From: Candidatus Multivorans sp.
GTDB taxonomy: Bacteria > Acidobacteriota > Thermoanaerobaculia > Multivoradales > Multivoraceae
Direction of reading: 5' to 3'
Length of the DNA: 64,000 bases
NCBI GenBank assembly: GCA_965247095.1
Contig: OZ251997.1
Location: forward strand, 1,984,001-2,048,000
Part shown: piece by piece, positions 1 to 4,812 of the stretch
Layout of the letters: every line of letters starts with the position of its first letter
Position numbering within the stretch: the first letter of the stretch is position 1
The notes under the pieces: generated by a model
What the model was told of the DNA's origin: nothing
Seen by the model: only the letters and a program-made list of their open reading frames with translations
Databases searched by the model: none
Translations under genes and position numbers: made by a program

Positions 1-839
1 CGCCCCAGCAGGACCTCCATCTGGCGGCGCAGCCCGTCGAGCGCCTGCCTCTGCGCCGCCAGCGAGGCCTCGACCGTCGCAATCTGGGCGCGCGCCTGCC
101 GCACCTCGAGCGCGGTCGCCACACCCCGCCGGTAGCGGGCCCCGATCCGGTCGCGTGTCCGCTCGCGGCTCGCCAGAGTGCGTCGGAGGAGTTCCTCCTG
201 CTGCACCGCCTCGACGACCCCGAAGTACACCTTCGCGAGCTGGCCGGCGATCGAGAGGCGCGCCCCGTCGAAGTCGGCCTCGCCCGCCGCCGCCTCGGTC
301 AGGGAGGCCGCCGTCACGGCGCGGAGCCGGCCCCACAGGTCGACCTCCCAGCGGACGTTCAGCGCCAGACCGTAGCTGGTGAAGGCGAAGCTGCGCACGC
401 CACCCGGCTCGAAGCCCGGAATCGGGATCGGAATCGCCTTGGTCAGGCCGCTCTGGGCGGTGTTCTGCTTGCGCCGGCCGGGGTCGAGCGCCGCCTCCAA
501 CTCCGGATTCCCCGCCGCCCCGTCGATCCGGGCCTGGGCAAAGGCCGTCTCGACATTCGCGGCCGCGGCGCGCAGGCTCGCGTTGTGCTCCAAACCCTCG
601 ACGATCAACTGCGACAGCAGCGGATCGCCGAAATCGCTCCACCAGTCCGACGCGACCTGCGAGGAGCCGGCCGACGCCTCCGCCGAGGCCGCCGCATCGC
701 CGAACTCGGCCGCCACAGGCGCTTCCAGAGCCGGCGGACCAGGGCCCACAGCACTGCAACCGAGCCAGAGGATCGGAGCGGCGACTAGCGACCAGCGCAG
801 CCGGCCCAGGACGCCACCATGAAGGTGAACCATCATCAT
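1..839 (-). CDS. RND efflux outer-membrane lipoprotein, NodT/TolC/OprM family (3' end runs off the window start)
   Basis: Manual translation from ATG 839: signal peptide with lipobox-like WLGC, then 'DWWSDFGDPLLSQLIVEGLEHNASLRAAAANV' and 'WEVDLWGRLR', both typical NodT motifs. Absent from the ORF track because there is no stop in the window. Confidence 0.9.
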   Translation of the reverse strand, partial: MMMVHLHGGVLGRLRWSLVAAPILWLGCSAVGPGPPALEAPVAAEFGDAAASAEASAGSSQVASDWWSDFGDPLLSQLIVEGLEHNASLRAAAANVETAFAQARIDGAAGNPELEAALDPGRRKQNTAQSGLTKAIPIPIPGFEPGGVRSFAFTSYGLALNVRWEVDLWGRLRAVTAASLTEAAAGEADFDGARLSIAGQLAKVYFGVVEAVQQEELLRRTLASRERTRDRIGARYRRGVATALEVRQARAQIATVEASLAAQRQALDGLRRQMEVLLG

Positions 840-977
840 GAAGGGGAACCAACGTAGGTTGGTTGTCGGGTACGGACGATCGACTCGAGAGTTCGACGCC
901 GAGCCGAGACTACTAGCCGCCGAGGGCCGGGAATCAGTTAGCGTCATCCCGATGGCACCCGACCCGGAGCAGGTTCC

Positions 978-2066
978 GTGACCCCGGAGGATCGCGGCGC
1001 CAACCCGCCTTCCGGACACCGCCGCGTCGACCGGCAGCTCAAGCTCGACCTGATCGAGGCCGCCGTGCGCGAGAACGAGGCCGAGCTTGGCCGGCAAGGT
1101 TCCGACCCCGCCGGGAGCGACGGTCCGAAACGCCGACGGCGACGCCGTTTCTCACCCTGGAGCCTGCTCCTGCTGGCGCCGATCGCCGCCGCCGCCGGAC
1201 TCGGCTACCTGGAGCTGAAGCGCCCGGGAGCGGAGATCCAACCCGACCCGCCCGTCGAGGCGGCGCCGCCGGCGCCCGAAGTCCGTTTCACCGAGCCGCC
1301 GGAATCCCTCAACCTCAGCGTCTTCCCGCTGCCCATCAAGAGAATCGTGCTCGATCCGGGTCACGGTGGCGCCGCCTCCGGTACGGTGGCCGGAGGACTG
1401 GCCGAAAAGGACCTCGCGCTCGACATCGCCCGTCGGGTACGCGAGTTGCTGTCCGACCGGTACCGGGTCGCAATGACCCGCGAGGCGGACTTCGAAGTCG
1501 AACTCGATCGTCGTTCCGGCATCGCCAACCGGGCCGGGGCCGATCTGTTCGTCTCGATTCACGTGAACTGGTTGACGCGGAACCAGGCCTGCGGCGTCGA
1601 GACCTACTACCTCGGCCCCACCGACGACCCCGAGCTGACCGCACTCGCCGAACGGGAGAATGCCGAGGCGCACAGCTACTCCCTGGCCGATCTGCGCCGC
1701 CTCCTCGACGGCGTCTACGCACAGGCCATGCAGGACGAAAGCCGCACTCTCGCCAACGCGGTTCAGGACGCCCTGTTCGCACAACTGCAGACATCGAATC
1801 CGGAGCTACGGAATCGCGGCGTGAAGACGGCGCCCTTCGTGGTCCTGATCGACGCCGAGATGCCGGCCATCCTGGCCGAGGTGTCCTGCCTTTCGGACGC
1901 CGAGGAGATCGACCGGCTGCGCGAGGCCGACTACCTCCAGTCGATTGCCGAAGCCCTCGATGCGGGCATCCGGAGCTACGCCGACTCGCTTCTCTTGTCG
2001 GCCGAGCCGCCGGCAGCAGATCCGGCGCTAAGCTCCGCGACTTTGGAGATCAAGGAAGAGCAGTGA
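978..2066 (+). CDS. N-acetylmuramoyl-L-alanine amidase (Amidase_3), N-terminally membrane anchored
   Basis: Zn-amidase motifs IVLDPGHGG, EK, ADLFVSIHVN, GVETYYL and FVVLIDAEMPAILAEV. Arg-rich stretch followed by TM helix WSLLLLAPIAAAAGLGYL. No AMIN/LysM domain evident. Confidence 0.93.
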   Translation: MTPEDRGANPPSGHRRVDRQLKLDLIEAAVRENEAELGRQGSDPAGSDGPKRRRRRRFSPWSLLLLAPIAAAAGLGYLELKRPGAEIQPDPPVEAAPPAPEVRFTEPPESLNLSVFPLPIKRIVLDPGHGGAASGTVAGGLAEKDLALDIARRVRELLSDRYRVAMTREADFEVELDRRSGIANRAGADLFVSIHVNWLTRNQACGVETYYLGPTDDPELTALAERENAEAHSYSLADLRRLLDGVYAQAMQDESRTLANAVQDALFAQLQTSNPELRNRGVKTAPFVVLIDAEMPAILAEVSCLSDAEEIDRLREADYLQSIAEALDAGIRSYADSLLLSAEPPAADPALSSATLEIKEEQ

Positions 2067-3097
2067 GCAACACCACATCCAACGGGGAAGTCCTCAAGGT
2101 CGGCATCGACCTGGGGACCTCGCGGAGTTCGATCTCGGCCGCGAACGGCCAGCGCCACATGGTGCAGAGCTACGTCGGCTGGCCCCGGGACATGGTGGCG
2201 AGGAAGGTGCTCGGGCGCGACGTGCTGATCGGCGCCGAAGCACTGGAGCACCGCCCCATGCTCAACCTGCGCCGGCCGCTGGAGCGGGGTCTGATCAAGG
2301 AGGGATCGGTCCAGGACGAGAAGGCCGTCCGCGAACTGGTTCGCCGGCTGCTGGAACTGGCGGCGCCGCCAGGACCCGGGCCGGCGCCCGCGATCCACGC
2401 CGTCGTCGGCGTTCCCGCCGAAACGCTCAGGGTCAACCGCCAGAACCTGCGGCGCATCCTGACCGGCCTGGTCGCGAACACGATCATCGTCTCCGAACCG
2501 TTCGCCGTTGCCTACGGACTGGATGCCCTGCTTCACACGATGGTCATCGACGTCGGCGCCGGCACGACCGACTTCTGCGTCCTGATGGGCCGCTTCCCGA
2601 CAGAGGACGATCAGCGCACCCTGAGCGCCGCCGGCGACGCCGTGGACCGTCACCTGTACGGCCTGATCGAAGAGCGCTACCCCGACGCCTCGGTGTCCAT
2701 CCACATGGTGCGGGCCTGGAAGGAACGTCACTCCTTCGTCGGCGAGAGCGACCCGGTCGTGGTCGACGTGCCGGTGCGCGGCAAGCCGACCCGGATCGAC
2801 ATCACCGAGCCCATGCGGCGCGCCTGCGAGAGCCTGCTGGAGCCCCTGCGCGAGACGATGCTGGACCTGATCGCGAAGGTCGAACCCGAGTACCAGAGCC
2901 GGATCCGCAGCAACCTGATCCTCACGGGCGGCTCCGGCCTGATCCGGGGCCTCGGCGCCGAGCTGCAGCAGGCCCTCGGCGAACTCGGCGGCGGCCACGT
3001 GCGCGTGGTCAAGGACCCTGTCTTCGTCGGCTCCGACGGCGGCCTGAGCCTGGCCAGGGACGCCAACGACGAGTACTGGAAGCGCCTCGCCGGCTAG
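2063..3097 (+). CDS. mamK: MamK-like actin-family ATPase (MreB/MamK superfamily)
   Basis: Actin motifs GIDLGTS, VSEPFAVAYG, IDVGAGTTD and LTGGSG. MamK-like segments SYVGWPRD, PTEDDQRTL, PEYQ, VKDPVF and C-terminal YW. GTGA overlap with the amidase stop. Confidence 0.8.
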   Translation: MSNTTSNGEVLKVGIDLGTSRSSISAANGQRHMVQSYVGWPRDMVARKVLGRDVLIGAEALEHRPMLNLRRPLERGLIKEGSVQDEKAVRELVRRLLELAAPPGPGPAPAIHAVVGVPAETLRVNRQNLRRILTGLVANTIIVSEPFAVAYGLDALLHTMVIDVGAGTTDFCVLMGRFPTEDDQRTLSAAGDAVDRHLYGLIEERYPDASVSIHMVRAWKERHSFVGESDPVVVDVPVRGKPTRIDITEPMRRACESLLEPLRETMLDLIAKVEPEYQSRIRSNLILTGGSGLIRGLGAELQQALGELGGGHVRVVKDPVFVGSDGGLSLARDANDEYWKRLAG

Positions 3098-3119: not shown

Positions 3120-3944
3120 CTACCGCCGGGCAACCAGATAGACGACCCAACTGCCGTCGTTGGCGAGCCTGGTGCGGTGCCGGAAGACGCCGTTGGGCTC
3201 GTCGGTGTCGGTGTCCCATCCCTCGCCGTAGACCTCGACTTTGCCGAAGCCGGCCTCGGCCAGGAGTTCGCGGATCTCGGGCAGGGTCCACATCCGCCAC
3301 GCGTAGCGGAACAGGTTGCGGACACGCTCGCTGCCCTCCGGCGTGAAGTGCATCGCGCACTTCATCCAGTGATCGACAGCGTTGAAGGACGCCTGGTCCC
3401 AGGTGTAGGTGAACGCCGGCAACGCCACGCCGTCGACGCCGACGGAGGCCTCGACCGCGGTGTCCTCCGTCGCGGTCTGGAACGAGTCCGTGCCGCCGAA
3501 GGCATCGAGTACGAACAGGCCGTCGACCGCGAGGGAGCTTCGGGCGGCGCCGAAGTACTCCAGCATGTCGGCCCGCTTCGGGAACAGGAAGTACGAGAAG
3601 TTGAACGCGACCTGCAGATCGACCGGCGGGCCGCCAACCGACCGCACGTCTCTGCATTCGAGTTCGACCCGGTCTTCGACGAAGTTCGCCTCCACCCTGT
3701 TGCGCCAACCCCAGTCCAGGGTCGGCCGGTCGAGATCGACGCCCCACGCGCGGTTCACGGACCGTCGCGATGCGAACGCGCTCGCGAGCGAGGCCGTGCC
3801 GCAGAAGTCCTCCCGCAGGGTCACCGGTCGCCGGCCGTTCAGCCGGCGGTAGACCCGGTCGAGGAAGTCGAGGTCCACCTCCACGTTCTGGACCGCCGCC
3901 TCGTAGAACCGATGGCGGTGGCGGCGAACTTCGGACGGCTTCAC
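3120..3944 (-). CDS. class I SAM-dependent methyltransferase
   Basis: LREDFCGTA motif I, GVDLD and AFNFSYF. GTG start overlaps the HAD gene stop (GTGA). Confidence 0.85.
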   Translation of the reverse strand: MKPSEVRRHRHRFYEAAVQNVEVDLDFLDRVYRRLNGRRPVTLREDFCGTASLASAFASRRSVNRAWGVDLDRPTLDWGWRNRVEANFVEDRVELECRDVRSVGGPPVDLQVAFNFSYFLFPKRADMLEYFGAARSSLAVDGLFVLDAFGGTDSFQTATEDTAVEASVGVDGVALPAFTYTWDQASFNAVDHWMKCAMHFTPEGSERVRNLFRYAWRMWTLPEIRELLAEAGFGKVEVYGEGWDTDTDEPNGVFRHRTRLANDGSWVVYLVARR

Positions 3945-4735
3945 GCGGCCGCGCCGTTCGCCCCGTGGCCCGGGGGCCCCGGCAGCAGAGCCGCCAGCTC
4001 GGCCAGGTCGGCGACCTTCGGGCAGTCGACCTCCGGCCAGTCGTCCCACGGGTCGAGCAGGACGGCGTGAACGCCAGCGGCCCGAGCGCCGGCTACGTCG
4101 GCCGCATAGAGGTCGCCGACGTGAACGGTGCGCTCCGGCCGGGCGCCGATCGTCTTGAGAGCGGCCTCGAAGATTCGCGGATCGGGCTTCTCGAAACCGA
4201 CCGTCTCCGAGTCGATCAGGGCGTCGAAGAGCTGGCCGAGCCCGATCGACTCCACGTTCCGCTTCATGCTGCCGTCGGAGTTGCTGACCACGACCATGCG
4301 ATAGCCGAGCGAGCGGATCCGTTCCAGCGCCTCCTTCCTGCCGGGCAGGCGCCGGTTCCAGAGCAGATCGTTCCGGCCGGGCACGTAGAGGCGCTCCGCA
4401 AGCCCGGAGGCCATGCCGGCAAGCTCGACGCCATTCAAGCAGGCAGCAGGCAGCCGGGCGAGAATCGCCTCTACGTAGAAGCGGAACGTGGACCCGCCCT
4501 CGGTCGACTGCAACTCCGCCGACAGGGCCGCCGAGAGATCGGGCCGGGCCGCCGCCTCCGCGCGCTCCAACTGGCGCCCGGAGCAATCGAGGCCCAGGTC
4601 CGACGCGACCTCGGCGACGCGCTCGAAGTTCATCGACAGGAAGGTGTTTCCCGCGTCGAAGAAGATCGTGTCCAGTTCTCCCCAGGGCACGTCGCGCGGC
4701 GGCGTCATGGTCGTCACGGCGTCGTAGTCTGCCAT
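3941..4735 (-). CDS. HAD-superfamily hydrolase (subfamily IA)
   Basis: Motifs FFDAGNT, VVSNSDG, KPDPRIF and HVGDLYAADVAGA. Confidence 0.9.
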   Translation of the reverse strand: MADYDAVTTMTPPRDVPWGELDTIFFDAGNTFLSMNFERVAEVASDLGLDCSGRQLERAEAAARPDLSAALSAELQSTEGGSTFRFYVEAILARLPAACLNGVELAGMASGLAERLYVPGRNDLLWNRRLPGRKEALERIRSLGYRMVVVSNSDGSMKRNVESIGLGQLFDALIDSETVGFEKPDPRIFEAALKTIGARPERTVHVGDLYAADVAGARAAGVHAVLLDPWDDWPEVDCPKVADLAELAALLPGPPGHGANGAAA

Positions 4736-4812
4736 CAGGCGCGATCGTCTATTCTCAGCACCCACATGGGCGGGACGCGCGTGCCGCCGGACCGGCACAT
4801 CGGAGGACGATC

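Follow-up and report, generated by a model that had tools for sequence, protein, structure and literature searches.

We analysed a 64,000-nucleotide stretch of the genome of Candidatus Multivorans sp. (Acidobacteriota; contig OZ251997.1, positions 1,984,001 to 2,048,000; hereafter the window) and found, near its start, an overlapping gene pair for a membrane-anchored N-acetylmuramoyl-L-alanine amidase and an actin-like protein related to MamK. The pair recurs in about nine phyla, the paired actins fall into one clade, and the amidase carries a conserved motif in its cytoplasmic tail, which is predicted in silico to lie on the actin. Together with this model, the pair points to a hitherto undescribed way of steering cell wall cleavage from inside the cell. 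As the most likely explanation (probability roughly 0.6), we propose that actin and amidase make up a cytoskeleton-hydrolase module complete in itself, where the filament would hold the bitopic amidase, or position it, through the helix in the amidase's tail. Such a module had been proposed in a first-pass annotation of the window, and within the reach of sequence analysis the main reading given there is supported.

In the list of open reading frames (ORFs) of the window, both genes start with GTG and encode 362 (amidase) and 344 (actin) residues. They overlap by the letters GTGA, so that the two-gene unit stands as first annotated. A MamK-family match (E <= 1e-40) was present in all 41 genomes that we compared within the order, namely the organism's own, 24 of the same genus and 16 from other genera in 11 other families. 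Wherever the locus was inspected among these relatives (30 loci, one from the own genome, 13 from its genus and 16 from further genera in the order), an amidase gene lay directly upstream on the same strand (30/30). The intergenic gap measured -4 or -1 nucleotides in 14 of these loci and 29 nucleotides or less in 29, with gene starts picked by script. For a broader sample, one genome per species was scanned with a diverse family alignment of 30 members, and the 80 best-scoring loci, all from named metagenome-assembled genomes, were kept. Among these, 61 have an amidase gene directly upstream on the same strand. Since 30/30 and 61/80 loci compare with just three Amidase_3 genes in the 4.6 Mb of the organism's own genome, the pairing is far beyond chance, and the linkage first noticed in the window is a conserved one.

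Judged by record titles, the 61 amidase-paired loci stem from Acidobacteriota (Thermoanaerobaculia and Holophagae), Rokubacteria, Thermodesulfobacteriota (Desulfobulbaceae) and other 'delta' lineages, Nitrospirota, Gammaproteobacteria, Aminicenantes, Rhodothermales, Schekmanbacteria and Gemmatimonadota, which amounts to about nine phyla in all. The 19 unpaired loci comprise one record that is cut at the actin gene (L092), one with little upstream sequence (L096), 16 of Planctomycetota type and one labelled as euryarchaeote (L114). Clustering of all ORFs within 6 kb of the actin gene left actin and amidase as the sole conserved neighbours of the 80 loci. Antisense shadow ORFs aside, no other family occurred in more than 11 of them. 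A third gene of the SPOR or PilZ-AMIN type was not seen in these loci either, although short divergent SPOR proteins may escape the clustering thresholds. The downstream families that were examined are lineage-specific housekeeping genes (alpha/beta hydrolase, dihydrofolate reductase, Ser/Thr kinase and thymidylate synthase). Within the phylum, the actin is patchily distributed: 18 of 201 evenly drawn genomes held a match at E <= 1e-60, mostly genomes of the window's own class. One Acidobacteriota genome from outside this class encodes a protein (G089:C54:14405-15397) that reaches 417.9 bits on the MamK family model and exceeds its curated cut-off. The Planctomycetota-type MamK-like genes (L097 and L101-L116, for example L115:35-1246 (+)) have no amidase gene. 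A common family of upstream ORFs of ~250-400 residues, with no Pfam family and weak coiled-coil-like matches, occurs in 11 of the 19 non-amidase loci and is possibly another adaptor.

The actin matches the Pfam families MreB_Mbl (56 bits) and Actin (40.9 bits). On the NCBIfam model of MamK (NF040964) it scores 360.5 bits, short of the curated cut-off of 400, and its relatives in the same order reach 389 bits at most. Its best solved relatives are the Magnetospirillum MamK structures 5jyg (270.8 bits) and 5ljv, aligned over residues 11-342, followed in the Protein Data Bank (PDB) by BeeR (8r2n, 152 bits) and MreB (4czf, 44 bits). An identity as MreB was rejected, with scores far below the respective cut-offs (PRK13927, 47.4 bits versus 293; TIGR00904, 36.1 versus 365.75) and the real MreB of the genome encoded elsewhere. 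BeeR was rejected as well: the actin reaches 212.9 bits on NF053558, where 530 are called for, and its core begins at residue 11 of the alignment with PDB MamK, with no sign of the disordered N-terminal domain that marks BeeR. In line with a resemblance to MamK over MreB that had first been claimed from short sequence strings, the score is 360.5 bits for the former and 47.4 for the latter, and those strings (SVVGYPKD, VSEPFMVGYGLD, DIGAGTTDIC...PGPEDQVTL and the terminal YW) all occur in the aligned PDB sequence of MamK. That is, by sequence comparison the protein is nearer to MamK than to MreB, yet by the NCBI threshold it is no MamK. The nucleotide-binding residues D16, G18, T19, D163, G165, G167, T168 and D170 are invariant in 52 actin sequences. 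No amphipathic membrane helix is evident at the N-terminus (MSNTTSNGEVLKVGIDLG).

To place the actin among its relatives, we searched 1.84 billion cluster representatives with HMMER, which yielded 169 clusters at E <= 1e-30. In a FastTree phylogeny of 157 rows (full-length representatives, the 80 locus actins, the window actin and the MreB of the same genome), all amidase-linked actins fall into one clade of 67 rows (Shimodaira-Hasegawa-like support 98), with L096, whose upstream sequence spans only 366 nucleotides, counted as a member. The clade was recovered by IQ-TREE (LG+C20+F+G4, quick search) from 60 rows chosen to span the clades, where it holds 23 rows (Shimodaira-Hasegawa approximate likelihood ratio test 97). 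The representatives lack organism names, and a clade of true MamK was defined by the scores of P0150 (508 bits on NF040964 and 463 bits on PDB MamK 5jyg); it is separate from the amidase-linked clade. A BeeR representative (P0220, 562 bits) stands basal in the tree. The window actin thus lies outside MreB and outside true MamK, in an amidase-linked clade of its own. MamK in the strict sense was rejected on the same grounds, as the protein stays below the family cut-off, falls outside the MamK clade and comes from a genome in which neither MamI, MamP nor MamQ is found above cut-off. A further suggestion of the first-pass annotation, that the pairing may reflect an ancestral role of MamK, is not borne out: rooting with MreB gives the amidase-linked clade a nested rather than a basal position, and with 6.7 changes per column on the very long branch that carries the root, the order of functions cannot be read from the tree.

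Among the more distant proteins in these trees, P0189 (768 residues) is a fusion of FtsZ (Tubulin and FtsZ_C domains) in front of a MamK-type actin, and belongs to the true MamK clade in both phylogenies. A clade of 14 representatives (P0132-P0154, 523-1232 residues) carries a C-terminal MamK-type domain behind 190-900 residues, for which no Pfam family was found in the eight of eight proteins scanned. An amidase-MamK fusion did not occur among the ten long proteins whose N-terminal parts were scanned (nine without a Pfam family, one with FtsZ). The cluster of P0158, which scores 371 bits on NF040964, has members named from archaeal metagenome-assembled genomes of ANME-2 and Methanosarcinales.

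The amidase matches Pfam family PF01520 (Amidase_3) with 152.2 bits at a gathering cut-off of 27, and the match covers residues 123-332 and positions 1-173 of the 174 in the profile. Among solved structures it is closest to Nostoc AmiC2 (5emi), E. coli AmiC (4bin) and E. coli AmiA (8c2o). An AlphaFold2 model built from a 55-row alignment (mean predicted local distance difference test, pLDDT, 81.2) shows, in this order, a helix at residues 15-38, a low-confidence basic stretch (40-55), a hydrophobic helix (62-80), a proline-rich and partly low-confidence linker of about 40 residues (81-120) and the catalytic domain from 121 to ~340. The best fold match of this model is E. coli AmiA 8c2o (template modelling score 0.81 on the target); the others include two membrane-anchored Amidase_3 enzymes that have a partner activator, LytH-ActH (7tj4) and CwlD-GerS (7rag). 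Amidase_3 is the only Pfam match, so no AMIN domain was found, and instead of an evident cleaved signal peptide the protein appears to have an N-in membrane anchor. AlphaFold2 and Pfam thus agree on the layout that had been read from the sequence at first, with a cytoplasmic N-terminal tail helix, one transmembrane helix, a linker and a periplasmic domain without AMIN. A septal amidase of the AmiB/AmiC type was rejected for the lack of AMIN and for an N-terminus that consists of a helix, a basic stretch and one membrane helix.

Four residues of the catalytic domain, H129, E143, H195 and E301, are invariant in the 55 amidase sequences; we take them to be the zinc ligands (His, Glu, His) and the catalytic Glu known from the family. 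On the NCBIfam equivalogs the protein scores 90 bits each for AmiA (cut-off 400) and AmiC (cut-off 700). AmiC and AmiA match it in one contiguous stretch of ~215 residues, insertion-less amidases in two, and helices 218-243 are modelled where the regulatory insertion of AmiA, AmiB and AmiC lies. In these three enzymes the helical insertion is autoinhibitory and blocks the active site. Because the match to AmiA and AmiC is contiguous with the insertion included, the window amidase may be autoinhibited in the same manner.

Some 30-40 residues ahead of the membrane helix, the tail carries the motif K/R-x-x-I/L-L-x-x-A/V-V/Y-x-E/D-N, which is conserved across phyla. In the homologues, the first residue of the motif lies 6-29 residues from the N-terminus and 27-52 residues ahead of the membrane helix or hydropathy maximum. 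A pattern search recovered it in 54 of the 61 amidase-type loci. Five of the seven misses are ORFs cut by the start of a contig, one is a visible variant (L093, …ELFRDVYEEN…) and L064 remains. The pattern demanded the final N, which makes its count (54/54) circular; at pattern-free positions of the 54 loci, K/R was found in 53, L in 46 and E/D in 50. N33 is also invariant in the 55-row MAFFT alignment (A2), partly by construction, as the other 54 rows had been picked by the pattern. When the own genome was scanned with a hidden Markov model of the motif, the window amidase was the best hit (E 0.014) and nothing else fell below 0.1. The upstream ORFs of the Planctomycetota-type loci gave short fragments in coiled-coil-like sequence (L104, E 1.9e-6; L105, E 0.002) and otherwise no match. 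Since a conserved cytoplasmic motif here sits on what appears to be a periplasmic enzyme, the tail calls for a cytoplasmic partner.

The actin is a candidate for this partner in a complex prediction. We modelled the actin (52-row alignment) together with amidase residues 1-57 (55-row alignment), each with its own unpaired alignment, and obtained scores of 0.82, 0.81 and 0.82 in three runs, compared with 0.00 for the best of three controls. Agreement between the runs is 92% of contacts or better, with a partner pLDDT of no less than 57. The predicted interface of the tail comprises residues 18, 21-30, 32-34 and 36-37, which is the conserved motif, and the tightest contacts involve N33. Docking of the tail on the filament had been proposed in the first-pass annotation; the putative helix that it named (DRQLKLDLIEAAVRENEAEL) is the conserved motif and the part that the model lays on the actin. 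On the actin side, the predicted contacts are residues 123, 126-127, 130, 140-143, 151, 154, 156-157, 176-178, 330, 333-334, 338 and 341-342. Judged by actin-fold topology and residue positions, this site would take in three elements, namely the helix behind the SEPF motif, the strand that follows the second phosphate loop and the helix at the C-terminus, which together form the groove between subdomains IA and IIA. Of the contacts on the actin, Y151, L156 and G176 do not vary within the amidase-linked clade. Positions 123 and 130 are basic there (R/K in 58 and 62 of 64 sequences, respectively) and hydrophobic in the Planctomycetota, long-N-terminus and true MamK groups.

The organism's own genome, a single 4.62-Mb contig of 99% completeness, encodes the usual wall and division machinery besides the pair. 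A true MreB (471 bits on PF06723) lies 1.3 Mb from the window, where mreB, mreC, mreD, pbp2 (a PBP2-type transpeptidase) and rodA stand in a row; a separate mreBCD locus of this kind was one of the things to be looked for after the first pass. FtsA is present as well (353 bits, above cut-off). Of the three Amidase_3 genes, the two outside the window encode proteins of ~595 residues with N-terminal regions of ~315 residues, one of them with LysM, and are likely ordinary septal amidases. Because the genome holds the MreB and FtsA systems and two other Amidase_3 genes, the pair is an addition to the standard wall and division set. We also searched the genome for the magnetosome markers MamI, MamP and MamQ. 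MamP gave 32 bits at best (cut-off 300) and MamQ 74 (cut-off 250), the latter a generic LemA-type match 370 kb away. MamI had no match at all, a weak negative, as its control matched in no genome. With none of the three above its curated cut-off, the setting is free of magnetosome context, as first supposed.

In the module that we favour, the amidase would sit in the inner membrane with its zinc-dependent catalytic domain in the periplasm and about 57 residues in the cytoplasm. Its short amphipathic tail helix (residues 21-37) would bind the MamK-like actin between subdomains IA and IIA, where a connecting helix (140-157), a strand (176-178) and the C-terminal helix (330-342) would form the predicted groove. 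The actin, with its conserved nucleotide-binding residues, would polymerise with adenosine triphosphate (ATP). Through the tail, the filament could then fix where, and possibly when, the additional amidase cuts peptide stems off the glycan strands, while the amidase would in turn be the membrane link of an actin that lacks a membrane-binding helix of its own. Of this picture, the sequences show the gene pairing and its conservation, the single clade of linked actins, the tail motif and the conserved catalytic and nucleotide-binding residues, whereas the contact is an in silico prediction, and filament formation, the assignment of the groove to subdomains, the positioning of wall cleavage and the cellular process that it serves are what we infer. 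A bolder form of the same idea, which we regard as rather unlikely, is a cytomotive filament of the MamK family that carries or spaces the amidase along the membrane. Its IA/IIA groove would capture the tail helix, and the system would work like ParMRC, except that its cargo is an enzyme. Such a cassette of two genes, spread over about nine phyla, would then be a third kind of bacterial actin-driven machine.

Several points weigh against the favoured module. The sample of 80 loci consists of top scorers and hence favours the amidase-linked clade, and one member of this clade (L096) has no amidase match in its 366 upstream nucleotides. Of 80 solved complexes 58 reach the score mark applied here, as do 2 of 110 mismatched pairs, but this calibration is only roughly valid for the present complex, as our own unpaired alignments were used. 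Within the clade, the interface columns are as conserved as the rest of the actin (0.68 versus 0.66), and the covariation between actin position 334 and tail position 30 (A-V in 22 cases, M-Y in 17) tracks the two main subclades, so that it is inseparable from descent. Peptide-in-groove complexes of other actins, ParM-ParR and actin-WH2, have been solved, and because of this, likeness to them could be partly behind the good score of the complex. By analogy to ParM, whose equivalent groove is open at just one end of the filament (PMC3794156), binding along the whole filament is not assured. And finally, given the insertion of the AmiA/B/C type, a periplasmic activator may be the real control of the amidase.

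Some of these points recur in alternative readings of the pair. In an arrangement similar to ParMRC, the tail would occupy the IA/IIA groove on monomers and at one filament end, and amidases would ride on, or be pushed apart by, growing ends instead of decorating a static scaffold. The predicted site would be topologically equivalent to the ParR peptide groove of ParM, the partner is a short helix as in ParR, and ParRC binds one filament end only, according to the accessible text of the ParM study (PMC3794156). We nevertheless hold end-binding to be unlikely: the subdomain assignment derives from residue positions, and the tight translational coupling of the genes suggests roughly matched protein amounts, which would be odd for an end-binder. 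Slightly further down the scale, and distinctly unlikely in our view, the amidase might mainly be an anchor for a filament with another purpose such as cargo positioning or mechanical support, comparable to MamJ/MamY or RodZ for their actins. The N-terminus of the actin would indeed demand an adaptor, and the different upstream protein of the Planctomycetota-type relatives, with no Pfam family, suggests that partners are exchangeable. But the four catalytic residues, invariant in sequences from about nine phyla, argue for a working enzyme rather than a tether, and the 80 loci share no third gene or cargo.

Signalling across the membrane is another thought, and FtsE, a cytoplasmic ATPase that acts through FtsX and EnvC, would be the model for it. 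Actin binding or polymerisation might turn on an autoinhibited amidase via the tail and the transmembrane helix, or else the tail might regulate actin assembly in the way of WH2 or profilin. The contiguous match to AmiA and AmiC, with helices at the place of the regulatory insertion, and the enzymes with partner activators among the fold matches speak for such a switch. The proline-rich linker, partly of low confidence in the model, of about 40 residues makes allosteric transmission hard, and we consider the switch very unlikely. Mere co-expression, with an operon shared for regulation and products that never touch, is a highly improbable explanation. Adjacency by itself is no proof of contact, but the pairing is kept across about nine phyla while all other neighbours change, the conserved cytoplasmic motif would otherwise have no evident use on a periplasmic enzyme, and the complex model beats its controls. 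A true magnetosome MamK or the remnant of a magnetosome island, finally, deserves next to no credence. Although no named family scores higher on the actin than MamK and no solved relative is closer, this reading is already contradicted by the score below the family cut-off, the position outside the clade that holds P0150, the marker searches in a genome of 99% completeness and the presence of the gene in 41 of 41 relatives. We thus return to the filament that holds or places the amidase by its tail as the preferred reading.

The features of the locus and the two further Amidase_3 genes of the genome are compiled in Table 1. Upstream of the pair, the divergent ORF 3..1097 (-) encodes an OEP outer-membrane efflux domain (66.6 bits in Pfam), which agrees with the efflux gene named in the first annotation. 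This frame contains a start region (ATGATGATG) near position 846, followed by a lipobox-like LWLGC. The gene is probably shorter than its longest frame, and a start near 846 leaves ~130 nucleotides between the divergent genes, the presumed promoter region of the pair. A consensus scan found no sigma-70-like promoter site, this region included, and its one terminator-like site equals chance level. Downstream, the convergent frame 3120..4586 (-) of 488 residues has no Pfam family at E <= 0.01, and its earlier label as a methyltransferase was not confirmed. This frame probably reaches too far at the 5' end and overlaps the minus-strand frame 3941-4798, which encodes a HAD-family hydrolase of 285 residues (76.5 bits).

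Table 1. Features of the amidase-actin locus (window positions) and further Amidase_3 genes (genome positions).
Feature	Position	Strand	Basis
Presumed promoter region of the pair; intergenic stretch between the divergent OEP gene and the amidase gene	847..977	.	Inference
Gene of bitopic N-acetylmuramoyl-L-alanine amidase (Amidase_3)	978..2066	+	Pfam PF01520, solved relatives, fold match
Codons of the cytoplasmic N-terminal helix (residues 15-38; motif K22..N33, window letters LKLDLIEAAVREN)	1020..1091	+	AlphaFold2, motif pattern
Codons of the single transmembrane helix (residues 62-80), after basic KRRRRRRF	1161..1217	+	AlphaFold2
Codons of the periplasmic catalytic domain (residues 121-340)	1338..1997	+	Pfam (123-332); pLDDT >90 over most
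GTGA overlap of amidase stop and actin start	2063..2066	+	Window sequence
Gene of MamK-family actin-like ATPase, member of the amidase-linked clade	2063..3097	+	NCBIfam, PDB match, trees
Further Amidase_3 gene	C1:2536015-2537793	+	Pfam
Further Amidase_3 gene	C1:4029635-4031428	-	Pfam

Both proteins have well-studied relatives. The amidase shares its catalytic fold with AmiA, AmiB, AmiC, LytH (with ActH) and CwlD (with GerS), and its match to AmiA and AmiC spans their regulatory insertion. It differs in that it has no AMIN domain and no evident cleaved signal peptide, and in its N-in anchor with a conserved cytoplasmic motif. With Magnetospirillum MamK (5JYG, 5LJV, 5LJW; NF040964), the actin has in common the actin fold, the nucleotide motifs and the C-terminal helix that contains YW, whereas it scores below the family cut-off, belongs to a separate clade and is partnered by an amidase instead of mamJ or another mam gene. 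MamK-related actins of non-magnetotactic bacteria have been published before. The accessible text on BeeR from Verrucomicrobiota (PDB 8R2N) describes a MamK-related protein of a non-magnetotactic host that polymerises with ATP (PMC11929497), and that on Saltatorellota describes a MamK-like protein that was seen along a filamentous structure in both E. coli and M. gryphiswaldense (bioRxiv 10.1101/817700). BeeR itself differs from the window actin by its family score (212.9 bits against a cut-off of 530) and by the basal position of its clade. The word 'amidase' occurs in the text of neither paper, supplements being outside this scope, and a pair of a MamK-family actin and an amidase was not found described in literature open to full-text search, which does not extend to subscription journals and supplements. 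What would be new, then, is the combination of a MamK-family actin and an amidase as a cytoskeleton-guided wall hydrolase.

For the predicted contact, ParM and ParR offer a parallel. There, the ParR C-terminal peptide occupies the ParM groove that lies between subdomains IA and IIA (PDB 4A62; PMC3794156), and a short helical partner peptide in the same groove of a bacterial actin is what residue positions suggest here. ParMRC, however, segregates plasmids with a DNA-binding adaptor, and no sequence kinship to the pair is detectable beyond the actin fold.

Peptidoglycan hydrolases need confinement in space and time, and only for a few of them is the mechanism known. Here, an actin of a family so far known for organising magnetosomes appears hard-wired to such a hydrolase in many uncultured lineages, which have MreB and FtsA besides. 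If the contact is true, MamK-family actins have a role beyond magnetotaxis, and two recombinant proteins would allow a direct test of a defined 17-residue peptide and its groove. To date, cytoskeletal guidance of wall enzymes is known from MreB in the elongasome, from FtsZ and FtsA in the divisome, and from bactofilin and its partner LmdC.

The last of these is the closest working analogue of the amidase-actin module. As far as the accessible text of the study goes (PMC10945521), the genes for the bactofilin BacA and the M23 endopeptidase LmdC of Hyphomonas neptunium and Rhodospirillum rubrum are adjacent in many species, and LmdC is a bitopic protein whose conserved cytoplasmic motif, a beta-hairpin, binds BacA with a dissociation constant of about 15 µM. 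In both systems, a polymer gene adjoins the gene of a bitopic peptidoglycan hydrolase, in our case in 30/30 and 61/80 loci and with the actins of a single clade, and a conserved motif lies on the cytoplasmic side of the enzyme. They differ in the polymer, as bactofilin is nucleotide-independent and the window protein, by its sequence, an ATP-dependent actin; in the enzyme, M23 in one and Amidase_3 in the other; and in the motif, a beta-hairpin with measured binding for LmdC and a helix with predicted binding here. Should the predicted contact be true, the MamK-family actin would thus join bactofilin as a second, independent case in which a polymer recruits a bitopic hydrolase of the wall through the enzyme's cytoplasmic tail.

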